Below, in pieces: positions 812-22,261 of a stretch of 52,774 bases of DNA. The DNA comes from Candidatus Saccharimonadota bacterium (GTDB taxonomy: Bacteria; Patescibacteriota; Saccharimonadia; Saccharimonadales; UBA4665), in assembly GCA_027314885.1 (NCBI GenBank), contig DAHUZY010000001.1:1-52774 (forward strand), read 5' to 3'. How positions within the stretch are numbered: position 1 is the first letter of the stretch; every line of letters starts with the position of its first letter. The translations under genes and the position numbers were made by a program. The notes under the pieces were generated by a model that saw only the letters and a list, made by a program, of their open reading frames with translations, was not told the origin of the DNA and searched no databases.

Positions 812-835
812 AAGCCTTATGCTTCAACCCTTATT

Positions 836-1365: not shown

Positions 1366-1574
1366 TAAGGGGGGTAGTATATGCGCGTAGCGAGACTATC
1401 AAATCAAGACGCCACATTGGTCGATTGGCGCTTGAAAAAGCAGCTCTCAAAGAGGTCTGCGCTTGTCGGTACTACGACTTGCGCGACAATCTGGCAGAGA
1501 CCAGCTCATTAGAGCTGCTGCGCATCATCAACCATAACTACGACTGTGCTGGTTGCGGTCGGAAAGGAGTCTGA
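1332..1574 (+). CDS. Hypothetical protein (start uncertain)
   Basis: ORF-track ORF with a TTG start. Its stop TGA (1572-1574) lies 2 nt before the next ATG (1577), suggesting coupling. The C-terminal part LALEKAALKEVCACRYYDLRDNLAETSSLELLRIINHNYDCAGCGRKGV looks protein-like. No family recognised. Confidence 0.3.
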   Translation: MRGTWLLPLRKVRGVVYARSETIKSRRHIGRLALEKAALKEVCACRYYDLRDNLAETSSLELLRIINHNYDCAGCGRKGV

Positions 1575-1576
1575 TC

Positions 1577-1843
1577 ATGGACGCCGCAGTTTGCACCTAC
1601 AACGGTTGGAGCAACCGTGAAACGTGGCTGGCCAGTCTGTGGCTGACCAACGACGACGGCAGCTATGTCCTGCAAGACGCGCTGCGTCAGCCCGGTGAGA
1701 TCTCCGACCAGGCCGACTACCTGGAGCAATCGCTTCGGGACCAGTTGGACGACGAGGTCGGTAACGCCAGTATGTGGCGCGATTTGCTGTCTACAGCATT
1801 TGACCGCATAAACTGGGTGGAGGTTATTGATAATAACCGCTGA
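1577..1843 (+). CDS. Small acidic hypothetical protein (NGWSNRETW...LWL motif), typical mobile-element cargo
   Basis: In frame with track ORF 1553..1843. AGGAG (1565-1569) sits 7 nt before ATG 1577. Product starts MDAAVCTYNGWSNRETWLASLWLTNDDGSY... The motif resembles small phage/plasmid proteins from memory only. Confidence 0.5.
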   Translation: MDAAVCTYNGWSNRETWLASLWLTNDDGSYVLQDALRQPGEISDQADYLEQSLRDQLDDEVGNASMWRDLLSTAFDRINWVEVIDNNR

Positions 1844-1874
1844 CGCTCGCGCCCTGAGCATGGCGCAAAACTGC

Positions 1875-2681: not shown

Positions 2682-2959
2682 CCATAGTCCCGCTGGCTCT
2701 CTTCTGTCTGCTCCACGCTCCCGCCAAAGTTTAAACAACGCCTGGATTTCTAACACATATATTATATATAAAGACAGACGAAAAAGTAACATTCATATCT
2801 GTTACATTAATGAATACTTTATTACGCCGGCGTAATAAAGTCTTGGACACCATCTTGCCTATAGATAGCACCACTGTATACTGGTTTTTGAGAGGCTTGT
2901 GTTTCCTTGCGAGGATACAGAAGCCTTTCCTTTATATAGGGCGTGGTAGAATACACCTT

Positions 2960-3175
2960 ATGAGCTCGGATAAGACAAGGCAGCAGATTGCAGGCAGAAT
3001 CAGAGCGGCCAGGCTGGAGAGTGGCCTGACCCAAAACCAAGTGGCCGAGAAAGCCGGTATCAACGTGACTGTTTATGCCAAGATAGAACGCGGCGACGCT
3101 AAGCCGACTATTGAATCGCTCCGGAAAATCAGCCAGGCGCTTAAGATAAAGTCCTCGAAGATCCTGCCCTTTTAA
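2960..3175 (+). CDS. XRE-family helix-turn-helix transcriptional regulator (71 aa)
   Basis: Internal Met of track ORF 2810..3175. Product MSSDKTRQQIAGRIRAARLESGLTQNQVAEKAGINVTVYAKIERGDAKPTIESLRKISQALKI is a canonical Cro/C1-type HTH. It is divergent from the replication-relaxation gene. Confidence 0.8.
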   Translation: MSSDKTRQQIAGRIRAARLESGLTQNQVAEKAGINVTVYAKIERGDAKPTIESLRKISQALKIKSSKILPF

Positions 3176-3262
3176 CGTGTGCATAACTAAACATAAAAGG
3201 CTTGCAACTGTGCTCAAAGGCATAGTATACTGTGCTTGTAAGCATAGTTGGGGGCGAGCCAA

Positions 3263-3415
3263 ATGGGTAAACAGCAGCAGGCCAAATTACCGGCAACCAA
3301 GCAATACACGACCGAGGAACGGCTTGAGCTGCTTGCCAACCTGATAGTCGACCACATACTGGATGCTCAAGATAAAATTAAGGTTGTGGGCATAAAGCCA
3401 TGCTCGAGTATGTAG
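3263..3415 (+). CDS. Small ORF (50 aa) overlapping the recombinase start; possible directionality or accessory factor
   Basis: ATG 3263 to TAG 3413-3415 encodes MGKQQQAKLPATKQYTTEERLELLANLIVDHILDAQDKIKVVGIKPCSSM. It overlaps the recombinase ATG (3400) by 16 nt. No family recognised. Confidence 0.25.
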   Translation: MGKQQQAKLPATKQYTTEERLELLANLIVDHILDAQDKIKVVGIKPCSSM

Positions 3416-5196: not shown

Positions 5197-5242
5197 TTGT
5201 ACTATACTTGGGTGTAAGGAGCCAGGGCTCTTAAATTTAAAT

Positions 5243-6541
5243 ATGGCAAATAATTCTTCGCAGCATGATCAGTCACACCATTCGCCAAATAGGGGGAAGT
5301 CTGCTCGGCATGATGAGGCTGCAGTAGAACTTATTAGGGATAAAGTCGATAAGCTCTATTCCGAAGAGCCTGATGTACAGATCGAGCTTGCCAAATCTGA
5401 AAATACGCCAGCACGCAGCAAGCATCAGGATTACATTCACACGCTACTTAACTCCGACAAGGGCCTCGCCACCATACAAACCGAGTGGCACGAATATTAT
5501 CAGCAGCTTCCAGATGACGAGAAGCGGCAGGTGTGGCAAGAGTTCTACGACAGCCAACCAAGTATTGCTCAGCATGTAAAACCATCCTCAGTGCCAGCCA
5601 AGGAGCCACAGCGGGTAGCAGCCAAAAGACGGGCAGAGCGCAAGATACGTCACTCCGGCAGTTCAGTAGATAACATCAAACAAAGTATCAAGGATACGGT
5701 CACTGGCGGCGGTAAACTTGGGGTAAAGCACCAGCTGCAATCGCTGCTTTTCGGCCTGAGTGTCGGTATAGTAGTGGTAATCATCTTTATGTTTGGGTTC
5801 TTTAACGAAGTATTCATAGCCCCATTTATTCAACCCAGCCGGGCACAGGCTGACACCCCTCTCATTATTGGCAACTCAACCATCGCACCAACTCCCACAC
5901 CAGAAGTTATTATTCCCAAAATAAATGTTGAGATTCCTGTCAACTATAGCGTTACGTCAACCAATGAGTCTGTAATTGAGAACGACCTGGAGGGCGGGGT
6001 AGTACACTATCCCTCGACGGTACTGCCGGGACAAGACGGCAATGCCGCCTTCTTCGGCCACAGCAGTAACAACATCTTTAACCCGGGAAAGTATAAGTTC
6101 GCTTTCGTGCTGCTGCATACGCTCGTAGATGGAGATACGTTTTACCTGACATACAACGACAAGGTCTACGTCTACAAGGTCATCAGCCACACAATAGTAA
6201 GCCCGAGTGACGTGAGCGTGCTCGGCCCAGTACCGGGTCAAACCGCAACGGCCACGCTCATAACCTGTGACCCGCCCGGTACCAGCATAAATCGCCTCAT
6301 CGTTGTCGGGAAGCAGATCAGCCCCAACCCGGCGGGCAATACTGCCGCAGCACCGACTGTCACTCCTGTTTCCACGCCCCCCTCTCAACTGCCTGGTAAC
6401 GGACCGACACTCTGGACCCGCTTTCTTTCCACTCTTTGGGGTAAGCTACTCGCAAGCGCAGTCGTTATCGCGGCTGCTATTTGGTTACTACGTGCATTCA
6501 ATCGCTACGCTCGCCGTAACCTGAAGCCGGACCACTCATAA
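5243..6541 (+). CDS. Membrane-bound sortase-family transpeptidase with long N-terminal extension
   Basis: Contains FFGHSS (catalytic His region), TLITCDPPGT (the TLxTC catalytic Cys) and NRLIVVG (conserved Arg). TM helices lie before the catalytic domain and at the C-terminus. Confidence 0.85.
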   Translation: MANNSSQHDQSHHSPNRGKSARHDEAAVELIRDKVDKLYSEEPDVQIELAKSENTPARSKHQDYIHTLLNSDKGLATIQTEWHEYYQQLPDDEKRQVWQEFYDSQPSIAQHVKPSSVPAKEPQRVAAKRRAERKIRHSGSSVDNIKQSIKDTVTGGGKLGVKHQLQSLLFGLSVGIVVVIIFMFGFFNEVFIAPFIQPSRAQADTPLIIGNSTIAPTPTPEVIIPKINVEIPVNYSVTSTNESVIENDLEGGVVHYPSTVLPGQDGNAAFFGHSSNNIFNPGKYKFAFVLLHTLVDGDTFYLTYNDKVYVYKVISHTIVSPSDVSVLGPVPGQTATATLITCDPPGTSINRLIVVGKQISPNPAGNTAAAPTVTPVSTPPSQLPGNGPTLWTRFLSTLWGKLLASAVVIAAAIWLLRAFNRYARRNLKPDHS

Positions 6542-8014
6542 ATCGGCTGGGGTAAGGAGTGGGGTTCGGTCCAGCATGACAGTCGGGGCAGTTTTACCTG
6601 CAGCAAGCGTAAATACATAGTCATAATTCGTTGCAAAGAAAGGTAAGTACGAGCTGCTGGCAGGCATGAGCGTTTGCTCGTTGGTGCCATCGTAATCGAA
6701 AACAATCAGCTTGCCGCCGCTCACGTATGTCAAACGGTCACCGTCCATCCAGCTGGCACTAACTTGTGGCGCTTGAAGCGGGAAGTGCATAGTGTATGTG
6801 TAAGCTTTCTGATTCTCGAAGTTATAGACAGCGAAATGGGTACCGCTTTCAGCCACAATAAATTGGGCGTTGCCTGAAAACTTAAGAAAGTTCGGGTTAT
6901 GGAGATTAAATATCTGGCTCGGGATAATGGTGCCTTGTTGATTATTGTATTGGCTGATCGGGTCTTGATAAATATATACCTGGCCGCTTGCAACATCTCC
7001 GGCAACTACATAGGGTGTACCGTTGTAGGTAGTGAGGTTCAGCAGGTATGTCGGGCTCGCCGGCAGGGTTCTGACTGTTATAGTCTGGCCATTAGAGATT
7101 AGCTTCAAAAATACTTCACCCTTTGGCGCACCGCTCGCCGTTACATACAGCACGGTGTGATTACCATATGATTTATAGGCGAGGACGCCTTGAAGGAACG
7201 GCGTCAACGTATTACCGCTCGATAACGAGGCGGTCTCCAGCGTTTGACTGGCGGCGTTGTATATATAATAGTCGTTATACTTCTTATTAATCAGCGTCAA
7301 CTCAGTTGGTGATCCATACGTATTACTGAGATTAACGGACTGTGAAGGATTGGCGGTATCAACCATGATGTACTCTCTTTTGCCATCATAGATGTGGGTT
7401 AAGAGGACATGTTGGTTGTCATCAGCCCAGCCGTCAATCTTCCAGCTCTCAGACGATATAGCTTTACTCAGCAGACCGCTCGGCAGAGAGAATTGAGTCA
7501 TGACTGGCTTGGCCGAGTTTTTGAGGTTATAAAGATCAAAATTCGTGATACTCCCGGGTCGTTCGACCAACAGCCACTGCCGGCTTGGGCTTTGGGTGAC
7601 TAAGGGAGGAGCGGTACTGTACGTATGGACCCTTGAAGTGACGAGCTTTATTGGAAAGAGTACGGGATAGTCAAAATGTTCGACCGCACCGGCGTCAAAG
7701 GTAATGGTCCGCTGCCACGGACGATACCCGTTGCGTGTCAGTGTCACAGTATATACTCCAGAGGGCAGGAAGAGCTGAGTGTTTGTCTTGTTAGCATTAA
7801 GGACTCCATTAATATATATGTTAGCGGGATTTGGCTGGCTGGAGAGAAATACCAAGCCGCTTTGAATAACAGTATCGTTTTTGGATAGCCCGAAACCATA
7901 AGCCTGATACACCAGTACTAAGGTCGCGATGGCAATAACTAGAGTAACCAGCACGTAGCCGATCATCAAAACCAGATGATCACGGAGTTTTCGTTTGGGA
8001 TCAAGATAATCCAT
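6536..8014 (-). CDS. PEGA-domain membrane-anchored protein with beta-rich C-terminal region
   Basis: An N-terminal TM (LVLMIGYVLVTLVIAIATLVLVY) is followed by SSQPNPANIYINGVLNANKTNTQLFLPSGVYTVTLTRNGYRPW, which fits the PEGA pattern. Confidence 0.7.
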   Translation of the reverse strand: MDYLDPKRKLRDHLVLMIGYVLVTLVIAIATLVLVYQAYGFGLSKNDTVIQSGLVFLSSQPNPANIYINGVLNANKTNTQLFLPSGVYTVTLTRNGYRPWQRTITFDAGAVEHFDYPVLFPIKLVTSRVHTYSTAPPLVTQSPSRQWLLVERPGSITNFDLYNLKNSAKPVMTQFSLPSGLLSKAISSESWKIDGWADDNQHVLLTHIYDGKREYIMVDTANPSQSVNLSNTYGSPTELTLINKKYNDYYIYNAASQTLETASLSSGNTLTPFLQGVLAYKSYGNHTVLYVTASGAPKGEVFLKLISNGQTITVRTLPASPTYLLNLTTYNGTPYVVAGDVASGQVYIYQDPISQYNNQQGTIIPSQIFNLHNPNFLKFSGNAQFIVAESGTHFAVYNFENQKAYTYTMHFPLQAPQVSASWMDGDRLTYVSGGKLIVFDYDGTNEQTLMPASSSYLPFFATNYDYVFTLAAGKTAPTVMLDRTPLLTPADL

Positions 8015-8113
8015 GTATTTTAGTATGAACTACTCTTGCCTCTAACCACAAGAGGGTTTAAGATAGGTATAGTATTACATATACTCGCAAGTGGCGGTAG
8101 GTGTGAACAAAAA

Positions 8114-9235
8114 ATGAGTAAGACTATAGAGATTCAAGGACAGCTATATGATGCAGAAAGCGGTAGCCCACTAGGGGCTTCGCCGATTAATACTGCCCAG
8201 CCATATGCCGCCCGGCCACGGCCAAGCTATATCCAACCCCGTCAACAAATAGACCGAGCTCTGCCGCAGCGCCCAGCCATAAATGCCCTCAAAGCTCACG
8301 CACCTGAACCAACGCCTGTGCTTATGCGCAGTGCGGTTAAGAGGCCGGCTCCGTATCAGACAATTCGCACAGCTCGACCTCCACAACTGATTGACCAAGT
8401 GAAGCCTGTACAACCAGCCCGGCCAATGCAACAGACACAAACGATGCCTCAAACAGTCAACCAGCAGTTACGAAACACGGGTGCGCCATTGAACCGTACC
8501 GTCAACTATTTCTCACCACCCGTTGCTACACCATCCCCGGCCACACCACCCGTTGCTACACCATCCCCGGCCACACCTCCCCCCCTTACGCCAACACCTA
8601 CTCCTATACCGCCATCTCTACAGCCGGCGCCAACGTATACACCGCCTACATCTGGCCCAATTTCCGCACCCTCTCAGTCACCAAACAGTGGCGATGTATT
8701 CACTCATGCACTTGAGGCATTCTCAGAGGACCAATCGGCCCACGAGCCACGGGCAGCCAAGCGACGGGGTCGCTCAAAACGGCGCCTCGCGTTCATGACC
8801 GCCGTCCCCGTTATGCTGCTCGCGATTGGCATCATCATGATCGTGAAAGACCATGCCTATACGCGTCTGCAGCTCGCCCTTGCTTCAGCGTCGGCCGGCT
8901 TTCGTACCACAGAGCCCGGTTACGTACCTGCAGGGTATAACGTTGGTCAGCTTAATTACAAGAAAGACGTCTTTGCGAGCACCTTTACTGATAAAACAAA
9001 CGGCAAGACGTACACACTCACTGAAAAGAAAGTGGGTGGAAATGGACAGGTTTTGCTGGAAACCTACGTGGCAATAACATACCCTCATTACCAATCGGTG
9101 AGTCGCAGTGGCCAAACAATCTATCTATATGGCAACGGTACAGCTTCATGGGTTAAGAATGGCATTTGGTATCAGGTGACCAGTCATGGCTCCCTCAATA
9201 ACTTCCAACTGATCAATGTAGCAGACAGCATATGA
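8114..9235 (+). CDS. Proline-rich single-pass membrane protein with DUF4367-like C-terminal domain
   Basis: Internal Met of track ORF 8036..9235 (MSKTIEIQGQLYD...). It has a long P/T/A-rich segment, a TM (LAFMTAVPVMLLAIGIIMIV) and a C-terminal GYVPAGYNVGQLNY...YTLTEKK...IYLYGNGTASWVKNGIWYQV. The C-terminus resembles DUF4367 from memory. Confidence 0.55.
   Translation: MSKTIEIQGQLYDAESGSPLGASPINTAQPYAARPRPSYIQPRQQIDRALPQRPAINALKAHAPEPTPVLMRSAVKRPAPYQTIRTARPPQLIDQVKPVQPARPMQQTQTMPQTVNQQLRNTGAPLNRTVNYFSPPVATPSPATPPVATPSPATPPPLTPTPTPIPPSLQPAPTYTPPTSGPISAPSQSPNSGDVFTHALEAFSEDQSAHEPRAAKRRGRSKRRLAFMTAVPVMLLAIGIIMIVKDHAYTRLQLALASASAGFRTTEPGYVPAGYNVGQLNYKKDVFASTFTDKTNGKTYTLTEKKVGGNGQVLLETYVAITYPHYQSVSRSGQTIYLYGNGTASWVKNGIWYQVTSHGSLNNFQLINVADSI
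8516..8575 (+). repeat. Perfect 30-bp tandem duplication inside the proline-rich CDS
   Basis: ccacccgttgctacaccatccccggccaca occurs at 8516-8545 and again at 8546-8575, encoding PPVATPSPAT twice. Confidence 0.9.
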
Positions 9236-10662
9236 CAAATACGGTGCGTACCCGTTTTGCGCCCAGCCCTACCGGCTATCTGCACGTCGGGGGAATTAGG
9301 ACCGCGCTCTTTGCCTGGCTGACAGCCAGACAGCATAACGGTGCTTTTATACTTCGCTTTGAAGATACAGATAAGACACGCGAGGTACCGGGTGCCCGCC
9401 AGCATGTCATTGAGAGCTTAAGGGCAGTTGGCATAGATTACGATGAAGGCCCGGATAAAAGCGGGCCCTACGGACCCTATGTGCAGAGTGAGCGGCTCGA
9501 TATATATCATGAATGGGCGGAAAAACTACTGGCCAGCGGCCGAGCCTATGTAGATCCGTATACCGCCGAGCAGGTGCAGGCCTTCCGAGAAGCAGCACAG
9601 GCCAGTCATCAACCGTTTTTGTTTCGTAACCATCGTCCTGAACAAAAACTAAAGTGGGATGGACAGAGCCCGCTCAGATTCATGAGCCAGCCTAAAGCAT
9701 ATAAGTGGCATGATGTCGTAATGGGGGATTTACAGAGTGGACCAGAAGTGATTGACGACTTTATACTTATTAAGTCTGATGGCTTCCCGACATATAACTT
9801 CGCTCATATTATTGACGATTATGAAATGAAAATATCGCATGTCATGCGTGGACAGGAATTTCTCGCCAGCGTACCGAACTACCTTAATCTATATGAAGCA
9901 CTCGCATTCACCCCGCCGCTGCTCGTCACATTGCCGCATATCCTAGCTCCGGAAGGTAACCGTAAACTGAGCAAAAGAGACGGCGCTACAGACGTACTTG
10001 ACTATATTCGTTTGGGCTACCCGCCTGATGCCTTAATCAGCTTTATTGCCACGCTTGGGTGGAATGACGGTACCGAACAGGAAGTTTTTACTCGGGACGA
10101 GCTTATCCAGAAGTTTAGTTTAAAGAGAGTCCAAAAGAGCGGAGCACACTTCGATGAGCGTCGACTTAACTGGATTAGCGGTACCTATATTCGGAACATG
10201 CCGCTTACCGACCTATCCTTGCAAGCTGCCTCGTATTGGCCCGAGGAAGCTGCCGACGCCAGCGATGAGTATAAAAAACGCGTTCTCTCGCTTGTGCAAG
10301 AACGGCTGAAATATCTTTCCGAGCTAGCAGCTCTCAGCCGCTTCTTCTTTGTTGACTTACCGGTTGATCTGGACCTCATTGTCAAGGATAAGAAACTCAG
10401 TAAGCTGGGAATGCCTGAGTTGAAAGCTATGCTTACTTCGGCTCGAGAGACTTTGGAAACAACCAGCTTTTCAGTAACTGAGCTCACCGCTCAACTTAAT
10501 CAACTACTTGTAAGTCTTTCACAAAAACCAGCAATCCTTTTCAGCCTGATCAGAATTGCGGTTACTTCGGCTCCCTCAAGCCCCGGACTGGCTGACACGC
10601 TGGCAGTCCTCGGCAAGGAATGCAGCCTCCGCCGCATTGATGCTTGGCTCAATAACCTGTAG
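9232..10662 (+). CDS. gltX: Glutamate--tRNA ligase
   Basis: RFAPSPTGYLHVGGIRTALF is the HIGH motif and KLSKRDG is the KMSKS motif. Length is 476 aa. Confidence 0.95.
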   Translation: MTNTVRTRFAPSPTGYLHVGGIRTALFAWLTARQHNGAFILRFEDTDKTREVPGARQHVIESLRAVGIDYDEGPDKSGPYGPYVQSERLDIYHEWAEKLLASGRAYVDPYTAEQVQAFREAAQASHQPFLFRNHRPEQKLKWDGQSPLRFMSQPKAYKWHDVVMGDLQSGPEVIDDFILIKSDGFPTYNFAHIIDDYEMKISHVMRGQEFLASVPNYLNLYEALAFTPPLLVTLPHILAPEGNRKLSKRDGATDVLDYIRLGYPPDALISFIATLGWNDGTEQEVFTRDELIQKFSLKRVQKSGAHFDERRLNWISGTYIRNMPLTDLSLQAASYWPEEAADASDEYKKRVLSLVQERLKYLSELAALSRFFFVDLPVDLDLIVKDKKLSKLGMPELKAMLTSARETLETTSFSVTELTAQLNQLLVSLSQKPAILFSLIRIAVTSAPSSPGLADTLAVLGKECSLRRIDAWLNNL

Positions 10663-14531: not shown

Positions 14532-14871
14532 CGACACACTGGAGGAAAGTGAAAGCCTGCTTGCTATTCACAAAGGCTTTCCCAATCCGGCGCTAGAGAG
14601 AAAGCAGGGATTTGCACTCGACCTCAACCAGCTGCTGGTGCGGCAGCCGCGGAGCACCTACCTGTTTCGGGTTGCTGGTCATCGGCTCGCAGACCAGGGG
14701 ATATATGACGGTGACATTGTAGTCGTTGACCGGGCTGTCTCTGTTCGCCCAAATGACTATGTGCTCAATTGGCAAGAGGACAACTTCGGGCTGCGCCGTG
14801 GCCATCAACTCTTAGAGAACGACGAGCACTGGGGCGTAGTGACGGCCGTCATTCATCGGTATAGAATATGA
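14521..14871 (+). CDS. UmuD-like S24 peptidase-fold protein lacking the catalytic Ser/Lys dyad
   Basis: GFPNPALERKQGFALDLNQLLVRQPRSTYLFRVAGHRLADQGIYDGDIVVVDR aligns with E. coli UmuD [52 protein letters not shown]. GDSM is replaced by GHRL, and VKKL by LRRG. Confidence 0.8.
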   Translation: MQPDDTLEESESLLAIHKGFPNPALERKQGFALDLNQLLVRQPRSTYLFRVAGHRLADQGIYDGDIVVVDRAVSVRPNDYVLNWQEDNFGLRRGHQLLENDEHWGVVTAVIHRYRI

Positions 14872-16142
14872 GCACTCCCCGCTTTGCCCTGATTGATTGT
14901 GACAACTTCTTTGTGAGCTGTGAGCGCCTGTTCAGGCCTGACCTCACACATCAACCAGTAGTGGTATTAAGCAGCAACGACGGCTGCGTGGTATCGCGCT
15001 CCCGGGAAGCAAAGGCTCTCGGTATACCGATGGGTGCACCGGCGTTTCAGTACCGCACTTTCTTCCAAGAGCATCGTATTGTACAGTTCAGCGCCAACTT
15101 CGAACTTTACGGAGATATCTCCAAACGCTTGCTGGATTGCCTGCTGGCACTTACCCCTAGAGTGGAGGCCTACTCGGTTGATGAAGCATTTATAGATCTG
15201 GACGAACTGCCGGTATCTAATTGGCAGGAGTGGGGAAGTGTCATTCGTCGCCGTATCCTCAGAGATATTGGCGTACCGGTTTCAATCGGCATCGCACCAA
15301 CCAAAACTCTCGCCAAATTAGCTGCCAGCCAGGCCAAGCATTTACCCATACTCCGCGGGGTACTCGCACTACAACCAGAAACCACTACGGGGTATCTACA
15401 AAATACAGCCATTGAAGATATTTGGGGTATTGGCCGGCGACTGACACCGAAACTGAAGGCAGCTGGCATCTATAGCGCCTACGACGTGCAGCAGTTACGA
15501 CCTCGGTACGCAAAACAGTTACTAGGCAGCATCCACGGCCGGCAGTTAGTAGCCGAGCTGAGCGGGCAAAGTTGCTATCCAATTGAGCTTGCCGCCCGGC
15601 AGCGGCAGAGCATTATGCACGGCCGTATGTTCGGTGAAGATACTGACCGGACCGGCGTCATCGAAGCCGCTATTGTGAGCCTCACCAACAAAGCAGCCAT
15701 GGGATTAAGGCGTGAGGGGTTGCTCGCTCAACGAGCCGCTATCGTCTTAAGTACCAACCGCCACAAGCCAGGCTATCGTCGGGTAGTCCGGTCGTTTGAG
15801 CTGGATCCACCAACCACTGACGGCGGGCAAATAGCCGCCCGACTAGTACACACCCTGGCGCCTGATTTAAGCGCTCACACTCCATATCACCGGGTCAATG
15901 TATTGCTCGATGGCCTCCTGCCTGAGCACAGTCTTCAGGCCGACCTCTTCAGGCAGCGGCTACCAGCGATACAAGCAACAAGGCGCCGCCTTGGGGCTAT
16001 CGACCGCATCAACGCCAAGTACGGCCCACGCACTATCCGCTCGGCAGCTGAAGACCTCAGCTCCGCTTGGCAACCAAAGCGAGCCTGGCGCAGCCCACGC
16101 TACACAACTCAGTGGCAGGAATTGCCGCTGCTCAGTCGATAG
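14868..16142 (+). CDS. umuC: Y-family translesion DNA polymerase, UmuC-like
   Basis: RFALIDCDNFFVSCERLFRPDLTHQPVVVLSSNDGCVVSRSREAKALGIPMG closely parallels the UmuC N-terminus. It overlaps the umuD-like stop by 4 nt. Confidence 0.9.
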   Translation: MSTPRFALIDCDNFFVSCERLFRPDLTHQPVVVLSSNDGCVVSRSREAKALGIPMGAPAFQYRTFFQEHRIVQFSANFELYGDISKRLLDCLLALTPRVEAYSVDEAFIDLDELPVSNWQEWGSVIRRRILRDIGVPVSIGIAPTKTLAKLAASQAKHLPILRGVLALQPETTTGYLQNTAIEDIWGIGRRLTPKLKAAGIYSAYDVQQLRPRYAKQLLGSIHGRQLVAELSGQSCYPIELAARQRQSIMHGRMFGEDTDRTGVIEAAIVSLTNKAAMGLRREGLLAQRAAIVLSTNRHKPGYRRVVRSFELDPPTTDGGQIAARLVHTLAPDLSAHTPYHRVNVLLDGLLPEHSLQADLFRQRLPAIQATRRRLGAIDRINAKYGPRTIRSAAEDLSSAWQPKRAWRSPRYTTQWQELPLLSR

Positions 16143-16162: not shown

Positions 16163-16744
16163 CTAAAATACAAACGGGATAAGCATCTTACTGGTCTTCA
16201 TGTACGTCTTGTACCGCTTACCGAACTGCCTTATAAGGTATTTTTCTTCTTTATAGGCGCTAAAGATGAAGTAAACACCAATAAACAGCAAAATAATGAG
16301 CCAGTAGAGGCCGGCACCCAGGGCAGTACCAAGCAGAGCAAGCAGCATCCCGGAATAGATTGGATGACGAACATAGCGGTAAGGACCAGATGTAACAAGC
16401 TCAGGATCTTGCTTCTGACTCATGGGCATACCCCAGTTTCTGCCAATATGCATCCGGGCCCAGACAGAAAAAAGTAGTCCTATGACCACAAGAATTGTAC
16501 CGATTATGGCCAAGGCAAGGCTTCCCTCAGATGCACTATTATGGCTCAGCATATGCTGTGACATACCTGAACCCTTGAGACTAATTCGCAGTAAGAAGAG
16601 AGCCAATAGCACTATAAGCAAACGCATGCCGGGGTAACCGCCAAAACTACTGCCTACATTACGTTTCGACTGTGTTGCCGAAATGAACCAATACACCCAA
16701 AAGATCACCCAAGCAGCCAAGATAAATAAACGCATCCCCTGCAT
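16163..16744 (-). CDS. Isoprenylcysteine carboxyl methyltransferase (ICMT)/phospholipid methyltransferase family membrane protein
   Basis: GPYRYVRHPIYSGMLLALLGTAL is the family signature, and there are multiple TM helices. The start is trimmed to Met21 of track ORF 16163..16804. A TATAAT lies 6 nt upstream of it on the reverse strand, so the mRNA may be leaderless. Confidence 0.7.
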   Translation of the reverse strand: MQGMRLFILAAWVIFWVYWFISATQSKRNVGSSFGGYPGMRLLIVLLALFLLRISLKGSGMSQHMLSHNSASEGSLALAIIGTILVVIGLLFSVWARMHIGRNWGMPMSQKQDPELVTSGPYRYVRHPIYSGMLLALLGTALGAGLYWLIILLFIGVYFIFSAYKEEKYLIRQFGKRYKTYMKTSKMLIPFVF

Positions 16745-16899
16745 GTATACATTATAACAACAAACCCTCAAACTTGCGTCGTAACTGCACGCCCCCATCA
16801 TCATTCGTACCTACGCACGCTACTGAGAACATAGGGTGGTAAGGTTTTTGCTCAATATGGTGAAGTAGGGGAGTAACTGCGAGACTCAATAAACGTCTG

Positions 16900-17634
16900 T
16901 TAGCTACAGTTTTCCTTGATGCCACTCTTCACGAGTAAGTAGTTGACAGGATATGCGGTGAAAAAGCCAAGTATCATAGACAGTTGCATGAGGAGCCAAT
17001 AACTGGACGTTGTTTTAGCAAGCGGGTATTGGAATATAAGCATCTGATATATAAACATGCCGACAAATAGACCCACCTGAAAGGAAATAATCGATAGGGT
17101 ATCGGCAGTAATGGCTTGCCGCAAACCTTCAAGTTTGCCTAGGCCTGGACGCATCGGAACAATTGTAAAATACTGAAATATGATACCAAGCGACCAGGCC
17201 AAGACAAAGTCAAATATAAAATCCACGTACATAGAGTGTCCGGCTATAGTAAGCCCGAGCGCAAATACTATCCACCCCCCAACAATATCCCCCAGCGTGC
17301 AGCCGGCCCCACAGTGAAAAACTGATTCAGCTGTTTGGTACCAATGAATTACATCATTACTCTGTGCTCCATGCTGTTGGCCACGCATGGTCTCTATGGA
17401 TGTAGCCCTCCCATATTTATAATAGAACCAAAGGGCAAATGGACCGAAGTATAAAGCTGTGATAGCATACACAGCCTCCATGATCTTCATGTGCTGACGG
17501 TGGCCTCGTTTGTAGATGTCAAAAAGGATGATCAATAAACTTGCGAAAGCTACTACAAGTGATATCCAGCCAATTATTTCAAGCCAGCTCGGGGGGACTG
17601 AATGCATCTCCATCATTTTAAGTCTATACCTCAT
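16900..17634 (-). CDS. DUF4396-like polytopic membrane protein
   Basis: Contains the FHCGAGCTLGDIVGGW motif, recalled as the DUF4396 HCxAGC signature, and about 6 TM helices. The start may be an internal Met. Confidence 0.55.
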   Translation of the reverse strand: MRYRLKMMEMHSVPPSWLEIIGWISLVVAFASLLIILFDIYKRGHRQHMKIMEAVYAITALYFGPFALWFYYKYGRATSIETMRGQQHGAQSNDVIHWYQTAESVFHCGAGCTLGDIVGGWIVFALGLTIAGHSMYVDFIFDFVLAWSLGIIFQYFTIVPMRPGLGKLEGLRQAITADTLSIISFQVGLFVGMFIYQMLIFQYPLAKTTSSYWLLMQLSMILGFFTAYPVNYLLVKSGIKENCS

Positions 17635-17846
17635 CCAAGTTCTCTAAAAGCAAGTCAAAATGTACGGCAGGGAGCATATGTGAATAAGACTTGAGGCATA
17701 ACAACTTACACACATCAAATCCAATAGCCCCAGATAACTAGGACATAAGGTCCGATTAACCAACAGTTCCACCAATGTCAGTTTTACATAGTTCTAATCC
17801 TGCGCAACCTCAAATAAGCGTACTAGCTGCTGCCAAGCATTCTATA

Positions 17847-18605
17847 TCAAGCCATTTTGGCCACTACTTGCTGCATAGCTACATCGAGATTATCAAAATA
17901 GGTACTTATAGCAGCCTGGGCATGTGGGTATGTAGCGTTAACCGGCTGAGCATCTACAATAGTTAGGTGGCCTTTGTGAATGCCGAGGTTGTTGGCGCCA
18001 AGTATGTCCGTAGAGAGCTGGTGTGAGGCGTATAGAGCTCGGCTACCCATTATTACGTCACCCAGCTCATCAATAAACTCAGGATAGGTAGCTTGCACCT
18101 GGCCAATTCTGCCCGCTAATGCAGAGATACCTTCTTCTTCCTCGTTAAGCTTTAAGTAGTCAACTTCTACGTATTGTTGCGTTATCCTAACCGCTTGCAG
18201 AAAGCGATGCTCAGGATGCGGGCCAATGTCAATGGAATGAGGTAAAACCGCCGGTCCGACATACTCCACAAGGTTTTGATGCTCTTCTATCATGCTATCC
18301 GCTAGACACCGACGTTCTCGACGAGATAAGCTCACACTATCCTTATGTGCTTTAACAACCACACCTTCACCTATTTTGTAAACATCTGAAATGTAACCAC
18401 TGCCTATCTTAGTAACATCTGAACCTAAACCAACTCTAAGCAAGGCTGCTGTTTTTTTGGGATATCTCGTAGCCGCTCTATGGACCGCCATTAGTCCAGC
18501 TCGTTTAGCAGGGTTAGCCACTGACCTAATTTCGTCTACTCTCGTTTGAAGATCAGTGCCTGAAGCCTCAATACTTCTGATGGCGGCTCTTCTTATGGAA
18601 GCCAT
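17847..18605 (-). CDS. Protein-kinase-like fold protein (atypical kinase/phosphotransferase)
   Basis: IGSGYISDVYKIGEGVVVKAHK supplies a Gly-rich loop and a VxK lysine. EEHQNLVEY is an alphaC-like Glu. DILGANNLGI is a D-x4-N catalytic-loop-like motif, and TIVDAQP is DFG-like. Confidence 0.5.
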   Translation of the reverse strand: MASIRRAAIRSIEASGTDLQTRVDEIRSVANPAKRAGLMAVHRAATRYPKKTAALLRVGLGSDVTKIGSGYISDVYKIGEGVVVKAHKDSVSLSRRERRCLADSMIEEHQNLVEYVGPAVLPHSIDIGPHPEHRFLQAVRITQQYVEVDYLKLNEEEEGISALAGRIGQVQATYPEFIDELGDVIMGSRALYASHQLSTDILGANNLGIHKGHLTIVDAQPVNATYPHAQAAISTYFDNLDVAMQQVVAKMA

Positions 18606-18783
18606 AATTTATAAACTATACACTCAATATAGATATTATACAAATATATTCATGCTCGTTATCTAAAGTATTGGGGCACGCTCATTCACTTCTCGAACAT
18701 CGAGCAAGGGAATTCATAGGGTGAGCCAGCTGGGAAATTCCTGGAAACCACTTTACGCTGTTTTGTTACACTTTGATTCGCAC

Positions 18784-19169
18784 TTACGTAGTCAGCTGGG
18801 GTCTGGGTATTCCAACGAAGTCTTTTGTATTAGAGGCCATAAGTGAACAGCCATTTAAAATAGTTGTAGCAGCAATAGTGGCATCGGCAAGCTCAATAGG
18901 TCGCTCTAGATCTCGCGCTATTTCTCCGGCTAACTTGGCAATATCATAGCTGTAGGGCAAAATCTTTAAGGGGCTAATTGTTGCTAAAAGGTATTGTTCT
19001 TTCTTCTCATCTTTAGTACTTCTACCTTCATATAGCTCTTGAATGCTAATTATAGATATTGCTAACGTCTCTTTTGGTTGTTGCCGGGCAATGCGCATTA
19101 ACTTGGAATCAGCTTTGGCATTTGCGAGCGAAGGTGATCAATAATTATATTAGTATCAAGTACTACCAT
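18784..19169 (-). pseudogene. vapC: PIN-domain VapC toxin disrupted by a frameshift
   Basis: ATG 19169 gives MVVLDTNIIIDHLRSQMPKLIPS, ending at TAA 19100-19098. The rest of the PIN domain (track ORF 18784..19098, ...ISIISIQELYEGRS...LMASNTKDF) is in another frame, open back to 19137. Adding one A to the AAA run (19121-19123) restores MVVLDTNIIIDHLRSQNAKADSKLMRIARQQ... Confidence 0.7.
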
Positions 19170-19459
19170 GGCTCTTTTCTAGATTTTGAAGCATTTAGCT
19201 CCGTCTTGGATCTACTGTACCTTAATTCATCCCAATCGTCATTGGCCCAGGCACCTTTAGTTTTTTCAAGTAATTGCAGGTATGAACTCTCTGTTTCGGA
19301 TTTAGTTATGAATTCCTCGACGGGATGTATGTAAATACCACCACCAGCCACAGTGATGTTAAGCGTTACGTTGCTATCAATACCCAAACTGTCTCTTATA
19401 TCTTTTGGTATGACTACTTGGCCCTTATCATTTGTGGTGGTGAATGATCCTATTTTCAT
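19163..19459 (-). CDS. AbrB/MazE (SpoVT-AbrB) family antitoxin
   Basis: The N-terminus MKIGSFTTTNDKGQVVIPKDIRDSLGIDSNVTLNITV is a swapped-hairpin AbrB-type motif. Its stop overlaps the vapC ATG (ccATGgTAG). Confidence 0.8.
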   Translation of the reverse strand: MKIGSFTTTNDKGQVVIPKDIRDSLGIDSNVTLNITVAGGGIYIHPVEEFITKSETESSYLQLLEKTKGAWANDDWDELRYSRSKTELNASKSRKEPW

Positions 19460-19482
19460 AATAGTAATATTTTATTACTATT
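19460..19482. promoter_or_regulatory. Inverted repeat immediately upstream of the AbrB-type antitoxin (candidate operator)
   Basis: aatagtaat (19460-19468) and attactatt (19474-19482) are perfect reverse complements separated by 5 nt. The repeat directly abuts the start codon at 19459. Confidence 0.4.
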
Positions 19483-19703
19483 CTTACATCCTTGTCAGGA
19501 AGAAAATACTGTATGTATTCGATGGTTTAAATTTGTCAAAATCGTATCTCATATATCCTACCTCTAGTCCCCTAATACACTAGAGGACTACAATAAAGAC
19601 TGGTGACCATCTAAGCCGTAGCTGTAACACCTTACATGCAGACTTAGCGTTATCTAACGACAAGCTAGAAAAGCCGGAGTTTGGACAAATATGTTAAGCT
19701 GTC

Positions 19704-20096
19704 TTATTTTAGAGCGTTTACTAGCTTCAAAGTATTGGCCTTAGTAGCAAGTATTCTACTGTCGCTGGTCATCAACGAACATTTTTCGTTCAGCGCGACA
19801 CTAATCAACATATTGTCAAAGGGGTCCTTATTATCGGGATTAAAAATGGCGTAATCTTTCAGGGAATTTATACTTGGATTGAGTAATTCAATGCCCATTG
19901 CCGGTAAATCATCCAACACCGAAGTATCGACGGTCATTTTGCCGATACTCTCTTTTATTTTCATCTCAAAAAAAGAAAAGTAGCTCAAAAAGACTCTGTT
20001 AGAGGTATCACTCAGTAGTTCAAGAGCATTGTGCCCAAGGCTGGAGTCCTGAGTTACCAACCAGACAAATACTTGTGTATCAATTAAGATCTTCAT
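19704..20096 (-). CDS. vapC: PIN-domain VapC-family toxin
   Basis: Begins MKILIDTQVFVWLV... (N-terminal acidic D) and contains ...SYFSFFEMKIK...DPFDNMLISVALNEKCSLMTSDSRI. It is 130 aa, lies downstream of a Phd-type antitoxin and is separated from it by 9 nt. Confidence 0.85.
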   Translation of the reverse strand: MKILIDTQVFVWLVTQDSSLGHNALELLSDTSNRVFLSYFSFFEMKIKESIGKMTVDTSVLDDLPAMGIELLNPSINSLKDYAIFNPDNKDPFDNMLISVALNEKCSLMTSDSRILATKANTLKLVNALK

Positions 20097-20105
20097 TACG
20101 GGTTA

Positions 20106-20351
20106 TTAACCTAGTAGTAATTCGCCGACTTTGCGCTCGGATGAGGAAGAGAAAGCATCCGGCTTGACAGTGATCTTACCTTTGCCGATAGTAAAGTTCC
20201 GTTTAGCCTTATTGCCGATATAATCCGGCGACTTGATTAGTAATACCTCGGCTTTTCCGAAGCCGCCGATATATATCTTATCGCCCTGCTTGGCAGCAGC
20301 AATGTACTTGCTGAGGTTGGTTTTAGCATCGTGGATAGAAACTGTTTTCAT
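20106..20351 (-). CDS. Phd/YefM-family antitoxin
   Basis: MKTVSIHDAKTNLSKYIAAAKQGDKIYIGGFGKAEVLLIK matches the Phd/YefM N-terminal pattern. Confidence 0.8.
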   Translation of the reverse strand: MKTVSIHDAKTNLSKYIAAAKQGDKIYIGGFGKAEVLLIKSPDYIGNKAKRNFTIGKGKITVKPDAFSSSSERKVGELLLG

Positions 20352-20590
20352 GTCTTTATATTAGCTAACTAGACTAAGTCTGTCAATAGTGCTCAGGTCG
20401 TTAAAATGGTGAACCACATACAACCCAACTTTAATGAAATTGTTGCCGAGATTATTAGGTGGAACGAGATAATGCGTGGTGTTTATGAGTTCAAGCCAAC
20501 CTTTAATATAGAAAAACTCTCTTATGGTAACCCTAAGTCACCCGATTTATAGACAAATCGTTAAGGAAATTATTAGATGGAATGGAATGC

Positions 20591-21001
20591 TTAAGAAAGT
20601 AACTTTATAGAAATATTCTTTAGGCCAGAGTAGGTGTCAACTAGTGTTTTGTCAAAAGTAATGAAACTGGTGCAGCCGTTTCTTATTGCTACACCGAGCT
20701 GAAGTGCATCTTCAAAGTCATTATTGCGTATGTTGTTAAAAGCCCATTCAAAATCACCAGAGTCCAGCGAGAGTATAGTGTAATCTTTCAGAAAGCTCCT
20801 TAATACTGGTAGGTCAACTCGCTGCTGCCCAAAATAGGCGATGAGATGTGCAGTTAGTGATGAGATGTTTAGGCTGTTACTATATTTATATAGTAAATCT
20901 TTAGCTAATTGCTTGTTCTGCCGCTCTAGGATAATTTCTAGAACTATATTGGCATCCAGAAATACGCTACTGGCTTGAGTACTTGTCAGTAATAGATTCA
21001 T
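20591..21001 (-). CDS. vapC: PIN-domain toxin
   Basis: Contains SSVFLDANIVLEIIL..., ...NISSLTAHLIAYF... and ...DFEDALQLGVAIRNGCTSFITFDKTL. It overlaps the upstream Phd-type gene by 35 nt. Confidence 0.8.
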   Translation of the reverse strand: MNLLLTSTQASSVFLDANIVLEIILERQNKQLAKDLLYKYSNSLNISSLTAHLIAYFGQQRVDLPVLRSFLKDYTILSLDSGDFEWAFNNIRNNDFEDALQLGVAIRNGCTSFITFDKTLVDTYSGLKNISIKLLS

Positions 21002-21236
21002 GGTACAGCTCCTTAACGGACTTGTTGGGATTAAAAGGAGATGGTTGCTTAGTTGCTGTTTCGAATGCCTTCAGACCTGCAAGTTTTTGGCTATGTTTAT
21101 TTGTTAAAGCATTAATAGCACTCAGAAGTACTGGCTTCTTAAAACGATGCTGGACAATAATATCTTCACCGTTAATTACCCGGTCAAGAATTTCATCCAT
21201 ATGCTGCCTTAAATCTTTTGCACCAATTGTTTTCAT
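20967..21236 (-). CDS. Phd/YefM-family antitoxin
   Basis: MKTIGAKDLRQHMDEILDRVINGEDIIVQHRFKKPVLLSAINAL matches the Phd/YefM pattern. Confidence 0.8.
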   Translation of the reverse strand: MKTIGAKDLRQHMDEILDRVINGEDIIVQHRFKKPVLLSAINALTNKHSQKLAGLKAFETATKQPSPFNPNKSVKELYHESITDKYSSQ

Positions 21237-21243
21237 ACTCTAA

Positions 21244-21261
21244 GTTTAACTTAAGTTAAAC
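21244..21261. promoter_or_regulatory. Perfect 18-bp palindrome upstream of the Phd-type antitoxin (candidate operator)
   Basis: gtttaacttaagttaaac is its own reverse complement and lies 8 nt upstream of the start codon at 21236. Confidence 0.45.
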
Positions 21262-21520
21262 CTGCTGTCAATTAAGTGTATCGGTCCATAACATATTGGA
21301 CTCTGCTGGCATTAATTGTAGCGAGTCTAGCAAAGCTCGCATAGGGCTTTTAAGTTTCAAGGTGAAATGAGGTTGTTATGAGTTGTACCATAGCAGCCAA
21401 TCCATAAGCTGGTAGTTAAAGCTTCCCGTGTCATAACCCTTGAAACAGGTTTTGGAACCCCTGAACTTATAAATTCCTATCTGTTAGTTCGAAAAATTGC
21501 TAATAATTCTGTCGAAAATT

Positions 21521-21534
21521 CTGATTTGGTGACC
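21521..21534 (+). repeat. Distal copy of a 14-bp direct repeat (att-like core)
   Basis: ctgatttggtgacc is identical to 22181-22194. It is followed by ctaggccacccggtttata, which resembles a deleted tRNA-Glu T-arm region (tRNA: tcacggggaatcgaaccccggttgct). Confidence 0.9.
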
Positions 21535-21597
21535 CTAGGCCACCCGGTTTATAAGGACATTGCCCCGAAATTCTTCGGTGGAACCAATTATTAAATT

Positions 21598-21621
21598 ATA
21601 GTTGCTATAATTCGCAACTAT
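21598..21621 (+). promoter_or_regulatory. Inverted repeat flanking a TATAAT box upstream of the RHH antitoxin (candidate autoregulated promoter/operator)
   Basis: The arms atagttgc (21598-21605) and gcaactat (21614-21621) flank tataattc, 16 nt upstream of ATG 21637. Confidence 0.45.
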
Positions 21622-21636
21622 TGCTACCATAATAAT

Positions 21637-21906
21637 ATGGCAACTACTCAAGGTATAAAACTAGACGACAATACCCGTGAAAGACTAAAAGTCTTGGCTA
21701 AGAAAAAGCAGCACTCACCTCACTGGATTATGCGAACTGCTATAGAAGACTACCTTAAGAGGGAGGAACAATATGAAAAAGAAAAAGCCGAAGATAATGC
21801 AAGGTGGGAGCAGTATCTTATAACTGGTAAAGCTATTGAGCACGAAAAGGTAGAGACTTGGCTAAAAGCCTTAAGCCAGGGTAAACCACGCAAATGGCAA
21901 GAATAA
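21637..21906 (+). CDS. Ribbon-helix-helix (CopG/ParD-like) antitoxin
   Basis: MATTQGIKLDDNTRERLKVLAKKKQHSPHWIMRTAIEDYLKREE is an RHH fold pattern. It overlaps the toxin start by 13 nt. Confidence 0.8.
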   Translation: MATTQGIKLDDNTRERLKVLAKKKQHSPHWIMRTAIEDYLKREEQYEKEKAEDNARWEQYLITGKAIEHEKVETWLKALSQGKPRKWQE

Positions 21907-22184
21907 AATGGCTTCCAGAAGCCGTACAGGACTTTGAGCGTCTATATTTCTTCTTATTAGATAAAGATAGCGAAGCTGCTAAAAGAGCTGCGTCAAGCAT
22001 CCTTAGCGGTTCAGAAATACTTAAACTTACACCAAGAATTGGTCGCCCTATGCCAGATGACGGAAACAGACGCGAACTATTTATGGCTTTTGGAGCGGGA
22101 GCCTATGTTATTAGATATAAGCTAGAGGGCGAAAATACAGTAGTAATAATCAGGGTCTGGCACAGCAGAGAAAACAGAAACTGA
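21894..22184 (+). CDS. RelE/ParE-family toxin
   Basis: The sequence is MARIKWLPEAVQDFERLYFFLLDKDSEAAKRAASSI...GRPMPDDGNRRELFMAFGAGAYVIRYKLEGENTVVIIRVWHSRE. This is a typical ParE/RelE plasmid-stabilisation toxin pattern. Confidence 0.85.
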   Translation: MARIKWLPEAVQDFERLYFFLLDKDSEAAKRAASSILSGSEILKLTPRIGRPMPDDGNRRELFMAFGAGAYVIRYKLEGENTVVIIRVWHSRENRN

Positions 22185-22194
22185 TTTGGTGACC
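22181..22194 (+). repeat. Proximal copy of the 14-bp direct repeat, overlapping the relE stop codon and the tRNA-Glu 3' end
   Basis: ctgatttggtgacc. Positions 22187-22194 are the last 8 nt (GGTCACCA) of tRNA-Glu on the reverse strand, and 22182-22184 is the toxin TGA. Confidence 0.9.
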
Positions 22195-22261
22195 TCACGG
22201 GGAATCGAACCCCGGTTGCTGGGATGAGAACCCAGTGTCCTAGCCGCTAGACGATGAGGCC
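22187..22261 (-). tRNA. tRNA-Glu (anticodon CTC), CCA encoded
   Basis: Reverse complement is GGCCTCATCGTCTAGCGGCTAGGACACTGGGTTCTCATCCCAGCAACCGGGGTTCGATTCCCCGTGAGGTCACCA. The acceptor GGCCTCA pairs with TGAGGTC. The anticodon stem CTGGG/CCCAG carries loop TTCTCAT. The T arm is CGGGG-TTCGATT-CCCCG. Confidence 0.93.

Follow-up and report, generated by a model that had tools for sequence, protein, structure and literature searches.

Repeat units of a toxin-antitoxin cassette array at a Saccharibacteria tRNA-Glu gene as probable scars of large serine recombinase elements

A contig of Candidatus Saccharimonadota bacterium (DAHUZY010000001.1, positions 1 to 52,774; this whole stretch of DNA is referred to as the window) carries four toxin-antitoxin (TA) cassettes next to the 3' end of a tRNA-Glu(CUC) gene, with copies of a repeat unit of about 65 nt between them. 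Each unit is made up of a short core, TGGTGACC or a close variant of it, and an adjoining arm. We consider it probable that these units are attR scars of serial integrations by elements carrying a large serine recombinase (LSR), that the tRNA-Glu gene is a recombinase-driven insertion hotspot, and that the TA cassettes are those members of the resulting stack that lack an LSR. Central to this is the finding, made by sequence comparison, that the arm appears to be the native 3' end of an LSR gene that spans attP, the element's own attachment site. A sequence-only reading had seen in the array an integron-like organization without an integrase; accretion by a serine recombinase, with a distinctive tail-bearing scar, replaces that description. 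The units have neither hairpins nor attC-like inverted repeats, the arm matches the 3' coding tail of an LSR, and an LSR gene is present in the window at 3400-5196.

The tRNA gene and the repeats of the window are given below, with E values from an nhmmer profile built from the repeats and a search space of 6.3 kb in the window.

22187 to 22261, minus strand: tRNA-Glu(CUC), with encoded CCA (ARAGORN and Rfam)
21527 to 21590, plus strand: unit U1, core TGGTGACC and arm (E=6e-15)
20525 to 20588, plus strand: unit U2, core TGGTAACC and arm, reading MVTLSHPIYRQIVKEIIRWNGMLKKVTL and a stop (E=1e-14)
20407 to 20495, plus strand: unit U3, core TGGTGAAC and a longer arm, reading MVNHIQPNFNEIVAEIIRWNEIMRGVYEFKP (E=9e-16)
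19601 to 19608, plus strand: core-only copy, the exact 8-mer TGGTGACC followed by a 2-nt insertion and CTAAGCC, with no recognizable arm

The last bases of the tRNA, GGTCACCA, are read on the plus strand as TGGTGACC at 22187-22194, and this end is the predicted recombination core, with the attB/attL half. Exact TGGTGACC is found three times in the 52.8-kb window, always on the plus strand and between 19601 and 22194. Five units had been proposed from the letters alone. Those at 21527, 20525 and 20407 were recovered by the profile, whereas only the 8-mer is present at 19601 (no detection by the unit profile even at E=100) and no unit was detected by the profile at 18720, where a resemblance to a decayed tRNA 3' fragment is seen by eye only. 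The 19601 copy is the probable boundary of cassettes 1 and 2. The supposed fall in tRNA similarity with distance from the gene was not borne out: the 19601 copy is an exact match, and the TGGTGAAC core at 20407 is a subfamily trait rather than a product of decay, since it is found in all three units of locus L083, which are near-identical to U3. U1 carries a coding remnant of a recombinase tail, frameshifted by a 1-nt deletion. The 118 nt from U3 to U2 (20407-20524) are free of cargo and may be described as an "empty cassette"; the last ~25 nt of this segment resemble the cassette end to the left of the L083 unit at 12268.

The LSR gene and its neighbors are located at the left end of the window.

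3400 to 5196, plus strand: LSR, 598 aa (Pfam Resolvase; catalytic motif RVSSARQ; Cys-rich ribbon)
5075 to 5161, minus strand: tRNA-Leu(CAA), putative attachment site of the LSR-bearing element (ARAGORN and sequence)
1875 to 2792, minus strand: Replic_Relax gene, upstream of the LSR (Pfam)
2810 to 3175, plus strand: putative XRE-type helix-turn-helix gene (read from the translation)

The frame of the window LSR (xTG GTG) covers the whole of tRNA-Leu(CAA) in antisense, reading KVQ and then LVGEEGLEP, and positions 1-5200 appear to be the right end of an element integrated at this tRNA gene. The tRNA-Leu core was not found a second time in the window. LSR homologues lie at the orthologous tRNA-Glu gene in L081 (49.5% identity) and in L013, and both read into the tRNA as TTG/ATG GTG ACC, which is the frame of the units; the frame in which the core is crossed is thus shared between tRNA-Glu and tRNA-Leu sites. 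In neither L081 nor L013 did we find a distal attR for the recombinase elements. The first kilobase of the window has a GC content of 61%, unlike the remaining window.

Homologues of the LSR number at least 1,553 at E<=1e-20, with domains PF00239, PF07508 and PF13408, and the endings of the best 120 were scored. About 98 of these 120 end either in V(T/I)(S/P)R(R/G)IE(L/P)xLPG and a stop or in VTPAGFEPA..., both of which correspond to tRNA-Glu read in antisense, and they thus represent the integrated state. In the window, the antisense of tRNA-Glu in the unit frame is LVTSRGIEPRLLG and a stop, the same ending as on most of the recombinase homologues. Longer native tails after the same junction (for example MVNYLRSNWNHIRQELYEWSRVLG) are found on about 10 of the best 120. 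When a profile of these native tails was searched against 42,863 open reading frame (ORF) fragments of the loci, the top matches were the units and other hotspot sites, with E values of 1.4e-3 for L069 and 0.048 for U3 of the window. A profile of the unit peptide gave no significant match among the 120 closest recombinases. An exhaustive HMMER search with the unit peptide in 1.84 billion proteins returned the partial LSRs P0172 and P0202, which continue straight into the canonical unit peptide. Between P0172 (locus L110) and residues 339-561 of the window LSR, identity is 42% over 223 aa (E=6e-65). Their similarity stops at the junction tripeptide, MVN/LVG, and P0172 then continues as LATPFFNSIVVEIIRWNDTIRN. 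The same junction pattern was obtained for P0202 with the L081 enzyme, and neither alignment goes further than the junction or the first residue of the shared tripeptide. It is from the native-tail profile, the unit-peptide search and these two junctions that the arm is identified with the LSR 3' end. Two other proteins, P0204 and P0241, resemble by eye further fragments running from LSR to unit peptide, and in L108 and L109 the recombinase ORF runs across the core into its native tail. For all of these attP-type junctions (P0172, P0202, L108 and L109), circles and tandem arrays are not distinguishable as the source.

Read from the base before the core, the arm encodes (M/L/V)VTLxx(S/P)(I/V)YKxIxxEIIRWNxx(L/I). 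Third codon positions are the most variable (permutation p=0.008), and the ratio of nonsynonymous to synonymous polymorphism (pN/pS) is 0.55 in the unit frame, compared with ~1.0 in the other two forward frames and 0.67 in one reverse frame. The unit ORFs stop after 22-48 codons and their start context is unconserved. DNA folding of 38 units on both strands gave no stable structure (mean z ~-0.3 relative to shuffles); no inverted repeats were found within units or linking unit ends, nor any dyad symmetry, and the sequence to the left of the core is unconserved. With no fold and nothing conserved left of the core, the analogy to attC is removed. We also considered the arm as the N-terminus of a long gene. 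The matches of a word-indexed protein search were all ORFs of 31-82 aa, no long ORF begins at or reads into any unit in the fetched loci, and two apparent fusions, in L090 (213 aa) and L077 (311 aa), look fortuitous. A protein of 366 aa from the exhaustive search, P0156, has seven tandem repeats (VVTAQDASYQHVASTITRYNS...) with a weak match to the unit-peptide profile.

Full-size elements occur in tandem. Positions 1-17000 of L109 hold two of them that share a core, and each starts with core, arm and a PLDc_2 gene. One has a reverse transcriptase and SLFN/AlbA_2 and the other has Fic/VbhA and type IV secretion genes, which suggests conjugative elements with defense cargo in Saccharibacteria. 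In the full-size elements of L108 and L109, a Replic_Relax gene is found upstream of the recombinase in the same place as in the window. At L025 (8327-8482) the last 23 codons of a recombinase survive as a relic (FTGVNPIFALTKMHKSQ) directly to the left of a unit, which is evidence for a full element that decayed in place. This was the only recombinase 3' relic found to the left of a core; none was detected in the spacer of the window.

The four cassettes of the window are adjacent pairs of small genes from known type II TA families (Pfam): MazE/AbrB with PIN, Phd with PIN twice, and ribbon-helix-helix (RHH) with ParE. Their genes, together with a transposase fragment, are as follows.

21894 to 22184, plus strand: ParE toxin (Pfam PF05016, 5e-15)
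21637 to 21906, plus strand: RHH antitoxin (Pfam RHH_1/PutA_1st), 99% aa identity in L041
21290 to 21420, minus strand: pseudogene fragment of a putative transposase C-terminus, within a 290-nt spacer (translation)
20967 to 21236, minus strand: Phd-type antitoxin of cassette 3 (Pfam PF02604, 4e-5, under the curated cut-off), 88% aa identity in L041
20591 to 21001, minus strand: PIN toxin of cassette 3 (Pfam PIN/PIN_3), 89% aa identity in L041
20106 to 20351, minus strand: Phd-type antitoxin of cassette 2 (Pfam PF02604, 4e-6, under the curated cut-off)
19704 to 20096, minus strand: PIN toxin of cassette 2 (Pfam PIN, 7e-9)
19163 to 19459, minus strand: AbrB/MazE-type antitoxin of cassette 1 (Pfam PF04014)
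18784 to 19169, minus strand: PIN toxin pseudogene of cassette 1 (Pfam match 18784-19098; frameshift after codon 23)

The presence of four TA cassettes in an AT-rich stretch bounded by the 3' end of tRNA-Glu(CUC) agrees with the sequence-only reading (ARAGORN, Rfam, Pfam and GC content); the GC content of the island is 0.38-0.40, lower than the ~0.44-0.50 of the window around it. The RHH-ParE cassette and all units are on the plus strand, and the other three cassettes are on the minus strand. The frameshift noticed earlier in the AbrB-PIN cassette is also present: the first 23 codons of the PIN gene, MVVLDTNIIIDHLRSQMPKLIPS, are followed by a stop that is out of frame with the remainder, and the homologue in L045 (6948-7331) is intact. 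Homologues of the AbrB/MazE cassette lie ~50 nt from a tail-type unit in L045 and at most ~60 nt from the tRNA in L018. An exact 14-nt repeat, CTGATTTGGTGACC, is found on both sides of the RHH-ParE cassette, and the ParE stop codon is 2 nt ahead of the core at the tRNA end.

Comparison of related loci indicates that cassettes are gained, lost and exchanged, with breakpoints at TGGTGA within the core. In L041, nucleotide identity to the window is 92.7% in the RHH-ParE cassette and 84.8% in the PIN-Phd cassette, while the kinase gene is only 58% identical, and homology begins at about TGGTGACC: at U1 the alignment starts at 21525, 2 nt before the TGGTGACC at 21527, and at U2 it starts at 20523, again 2 nt before the core. 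The ParE protein is 93% identical to the L041 copy, which adjoins the tRNA-Glu gene of that genome. Of the two cassettes shared with this distant genome, the one nearest the tRNA has the more similar copy there, which fits the earlier suggestion that the newest cassette lies beside the tRNA. The L095 junction combines two L094 units that lie five cassettes apart: its left flank is that of unit 4942, its arm is that of unit 10371, and the switch falls within TGGTGACC. Loci L083 and L085 are identical up to TGGTGA, after which one continues with a unit and a large element and the other with tRNA-Glu(UUC). In all five independent junction comparisons the switch falls in or at TGGTGA, and in none does it fall in the equally long identity blocks of the arm. 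The polymorphism is thus at the level of whole cassettes, with precise breakpoints at the core, in support of the earlier reading. The RHH-ParE cassette, 660 bp long and 93% identical, lies beside two different types of tRNA-Glu gene with flanks too diverged for homologous exchange, which argues for movement as a discrete unit.

To place the array among its relatives, 80 Saccharibacteria loci of ~20 kb each were fetched by way of the orthologous histidine kinase gene; further unit-bearing loci come from public genome, metagenome and assembly collections, and several of these represent one locus from different assemblies. The tRNA-Glu(CUC) gene adjoins the histidine kinase gene in ~70 of the 80 loci. 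The repeat unit described from the window is conserved in related genomes: of the 80 loci, 10 gave an nhmmer match to it, as did four copies of a fifth locus family and 17 metagenome contigs. All 55 units found with this profile have the order core, arm, cargo, tRNA, and a combined peptide profile gave 65 matches in 33 loci (the window and 32 others). The largest array has six units in 5.5 kb. Besides TA modules, the cargo includes Nudix, HAD, phosphatase and membrane proteins, and an arm moves with the cargo on its tRNA side. A scan of viral contigs for the unit gave no match. The left flank of the region is conserved, and the genes between it and the array are variable.

14868 to 16142, plus strand: Y-family DNA polymerase (UmuC/DinB-like), the conserved left flank (Pfam IMS)
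16163 to 18605, minus strand: three variable genes (PEMT/ICMT-like, DUF4396 and an unknown), free of units (Pfam)

The gap from this polymerase flank to the tRNA 3' end ranges from 25 nt to 6.6 kb across loci and is 6.0 kb in the window, so that the genes at 16163-18605, for which tBLASTN at E<=1e-5 found no homologue in loci L001-L082, also belong to the hypervariable region. At an empty site in L012 (2740-2760), the locus with the shortest gap, the polymerase stop codon (AAA TGG TGA) lies within the 3' end of tRNA-Glu, and there is thus no intergenic DNA.

We propose that a family of Saccharibacteria integrative elements, among them some of conjugative type, is moved by an LSR and has its attachment site in the region downstream of tRNA-Glu. 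A full-size element would start with core and arm and end with the Replic_Relax gene and then the LSR, beside the tRNA. In the free attP form, the last 25-45 LSR codons would lie beyond the core. On integration, these codons and the P half-site would become an attR scar at the element's far end, and the integrated LSR would end in ~13 codons read antisense from the tRNA, its stop codon TGA being the complement of UCA at positions 35-37, in the Glu anticodon loop. Each unit of TGGTGACC and arm would be such a scar. Because integration regenerates the tRNA end, elements could stack in tandem, and the four TA cassettes would be LSR-less members of the stack; the array fits the serial site-specific insertion at the tRNA 3' end that was proposed earlier. 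The most economical origin of such members is a passenger route that needs only ordinary excision and integration: an LSR element may excise with a more distal unit, carrying cassettes along, and later leave with its own unit, dropping them. Alternatively, LSR-less cassettes may be moved in trans, and the window LSR is a candidate trans-acting enzyme that could act on the cassettes of the array. TA modules may be kept since their loss is counter-selected. The PIN pseudogene and the transposase fragment are signs of decay in the window.

The crossing of its own attachment site by the recombinase gene may be a simple regulatory device. A more far-reaching scheme is possible, although we are inclined to doubt it: by swapping the native tail of 25-45 residues for ~13 tRNA-encoded residues, integration might alter the activity or direction of the LSR, and tolerance of the left half-site might make tRNA-Glu an integron-like capture platform at which recombinases acting in trans collect, shuffle and export LSR-less cassettes (TA, Nudix, HAD, phosphatase and others) across Saccharibacteria.

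Several points weigh against the scar model. The main difficulty is the freely varying left half of the target. Canonical LSRs recombine attP with attB only and need two half-sites, and textbook serine integrases do not tolerate a variable left half-site; with the sequence left of the core unconserved, tandem insertion would thus need an unusual half-site tolerance. No recombinase is present in the array or within 17 kb of it, and the window LSR is located at tRNA-Leu, its action on tRNA-Glu sites being putative. A circular junction of an LSR-less cassette was not seen, nor was a locus with an LSR element and LSR-less cassettes in one array. Most LSR-less cassettes have no LSR relic at their tRNA-side end, so that simple decay of full elements fails to explain them. 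The pN/pS of 0.55 is moderate. Finally, since few stretches are as well conserved as the core, short-homology deletion could also produce breakpoints there.

This last point leads to a rival explanation in which the units are old, inert scars and passive blocks of homology, with cassettes rearranged by homologous recombination or by recombination over short homologies, for instance following natural transformation. Units within a genome are indeed close (the three in L083 are ~90% alike), stretches of 11-13 nt are identical in the core and in two other blocks, and the pseudogenes and insertion-sequence remnant of the array speak of decay. However, all five junction comparisons switch in or at TGGTGA and not in the arm blocks, and the flanks of the 93% identical RHH-ParE cassette at its two tRNA-Glu types are too diverged for homologous exchange; we regard this explanation as unlikely. 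Another rival takes the arm as a free-standing small protein of ~25-35 aa with its own function, translated from the GTG in the core. Of the 55 units, 38 keep the frame open, the codon positions give a signal, and the exhaustive search gave 120 short-ORF clusters. However, the base before the core is unconserved, so that there is no conserved start context or ribosome-binding site; conservation ends after ~24 codons and the tails beyond differ; some units are frameshifted or contain stops; and the same peptide ends LSR proteins, which makes this explanation very unlikely.

Two further rivals invoke a different enzyme. A classical tRNA-targeting tyrosine integrase might have built the array in trans, in the manner of cis-mobilizable elements (CIMEs), the serine recombinases being unrelated neighbors. 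The 3' ends of tRNA genes are classic targets (PMC9262239), L045 has a Phage_integrase gene ~5 kb from its array, and direct repeats of 8-14 nt resemble a common core. The L045 gene is, however, the sole tyrosine recombinase found in a profile search of all ORFs of the window and the 80 loci; none is present among the 29 window ORFs (Pfam) and none adjoins tRNA-Glu in ~70 loci. Moreover, three loci and ~100 database proteins have LSR reading frames that all cross the core in the same fixed frame, and the arm is accounted for by the LSR tail, leaving this rival highly improbable. The integron-like platform would have the units as folded single-strand attC-like sites, an IntI-like or other enzyme elsewhere, and the tRNA end as attI. 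In its favor are one- or two-gene cassettes in arrays of up to six, TA cargo typical of chromosomal integrons, a conserved site lying entirely on one side of the crossover, and a recombinase that is not adjacent. Set against these are units without a stable fold on either strand and with ends not linked by inverted repeats, a consensus that on inspection has no R''/R' boxes, cargo in both orientations, a single tyrosine recombinase across the 80 loci, and the LSR tail as the source of the arm. We consider this explanation scarcely credible and largely refuted.

Among known systems, the closest analogue appears to be the composite islands of the staphylococcal cassette chromosome (SCC and SCCmec), from which single or composite units may be alternatively excised. 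As proposed here, the mover of SCC is a large serine recombinase (CcrAB or CcrC), integration targets the 3' end of a conserved gene (rlmH, or orfX) and leaves it intact, and elements stack in tandem with a short copy of the target end at every boundary. Pseudo-elements without a recombinase also lie beside recombinase-bearing ones, as where a ccr-less PsiSCCmec adjoins a ccr-carrying SCC (PMC3900703); here these correspond to the LSR-less cassettes, with a side-by-side LSR element not seen in one array. Unlike SCC, the target is a tRNA gene rather than a protein-coding gene, the LSR frame crosses attP so that the scar holds the displaced tail, the cassettes are far smaller (0.5-1.7 kb), and the host is a bacterium of the candidate phyla radiation (CPR). 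Kinship between these LSRs and Ccr is known only at the level of shared family domains.

In SSV1-type archaeal viruses, attP lies inside the integrase gene, which is split in two on integration. An attP within a gene whose C-terminus is swapped at a tRNA 3' end is found likewise in mycobacteriophages with integration-dependent immunity, in which attP lies in the repressor gene and integration at a tRNA 3' end removes or swaps the repressor C-terminus (PMC9262239). Unlike the elements here, both use tyrosine integrases; furthermore, the gene affected here is the recombinase and not a repressor, and only a tail of ~25-45 aa is exchanged for ~13 tRNA-encoded residues, whereas the SSV1 gene is split. 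With integrons and clusters of attC sites lacking integron-integrases (CALINs), the arrays share small cassettes, one conserved site per cassette, TA cargo and a recombinase that is not adjacent and, under the model, insertion beside a fixed anchor. They differ in having no IntI, no attC hairpin or R/L boxes, cargo in either orientation, a tRNA anchor and a repeat that is a remnant of a recombinase tail. The pdif modules of Acinetobacter plasmids exploit XerC/XerD at 28-bp dif-like sites of alternating orientation. They too are small modules, often with TA genes, that have short recombination sites and lack a recombinase of their own; the units here are all direct, ~65 nt long and not palindromic, as judged from their lack of dyad symmetry rather than from a formal dif model. 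Islands linked to tRNA genes, including CIMEs, are moved by tyrosine integrases and show tandem accretion and integrase-less derivatives. The 3' hotspot of a tRNA gene, the direct repeats of the tRNA end at boundaries and the integrase-less tandem members are all common to them and to the array, but the enzyme family here is serine and not tyrosine. Mycobacteriophage serine integrases are reported not to use tRNA genes, which makes a tRNA target unexpected for serine integrases (PMC9262239). A limited literature search on serine recombinases of Saccharibacteria found nothing on a tRNA-Glu array or LSR system, a broader one on attB sites in tRNA genes and on large serine recombinases gave no relevant result, and a recombinase gene that crosses its own attachment site and has its C-terminus rewritten was likewise not found in a limited search.

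The genomes of Saccharibacteria and other CPR bacteria are tiny, and few routes by which these organisms exchange genes are known. The tRNA-Glu gene is a major insertion site in Saccharibacteria, served by the recombinase family described above. The footprints provide a sequence signature with which past insertions can be mapped in metagenome bins, and many short "hypothetical" ORFs annotated at these loci would be scars rather than genes. The LSR, the attP unit and the tRNA-Glu attB together make a candidate site-specific integration tool for organisms that are hard to engineer.

Some further features of these loci may be recorded. In the window, the fragment at 21290-21420 translates as ...WLLWYNS, a stop and QPHFTLKLKSPMRALLDSLQLMPAESNMLWTDTLN, and has 77% nucleotide homology to positions 1-134 of L063, where its intact homologue lies beside the kinase gene; it resembles the C-terminus of a DDE transposase, a putative assignment based on a motif. 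The 254-nt spacer to the left of U1 was considered as a decayed ParE cassette, but local alignment did not exceed shuffled controls, and the transposase fragment is found there instead. A search with Rfam matched only the tRNA in this region. In L045, an array of four TA cassettes (6490-9800) runs in inverted orientation with respect to the kinase gene. An intact tRNA-Glu was not detected in this locus; what had been taken for a decayed tRNA remnant was shown by the native-tail profile to be a tail-type unit, located at ~6590 (LVSLIGTNWNQIKREL). The tyrosine integrase gene of this locus (759-1649) and a resolvase fragment lie 5-6 kb from the array. A repeat of a second type, ~110 nt in length, finishes with CCGCAGGGGTCACCA, which copies 15 nt of the tRNA-Glu 3' end. 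This repeat may be the scar of another element family. It occurs in L051 (2990-3097 and 7970-8085) and also in L027, L058, L061, L064, L070 and L074, and in these seven loci it is found 144-255 nt downstream of the tRNA; in L051 it had no Rfam match beyond the tRNA. In L032, the 5' half of tRNA-Glu recurs in part at 8011-8050, ~150 nt from the intact gene.

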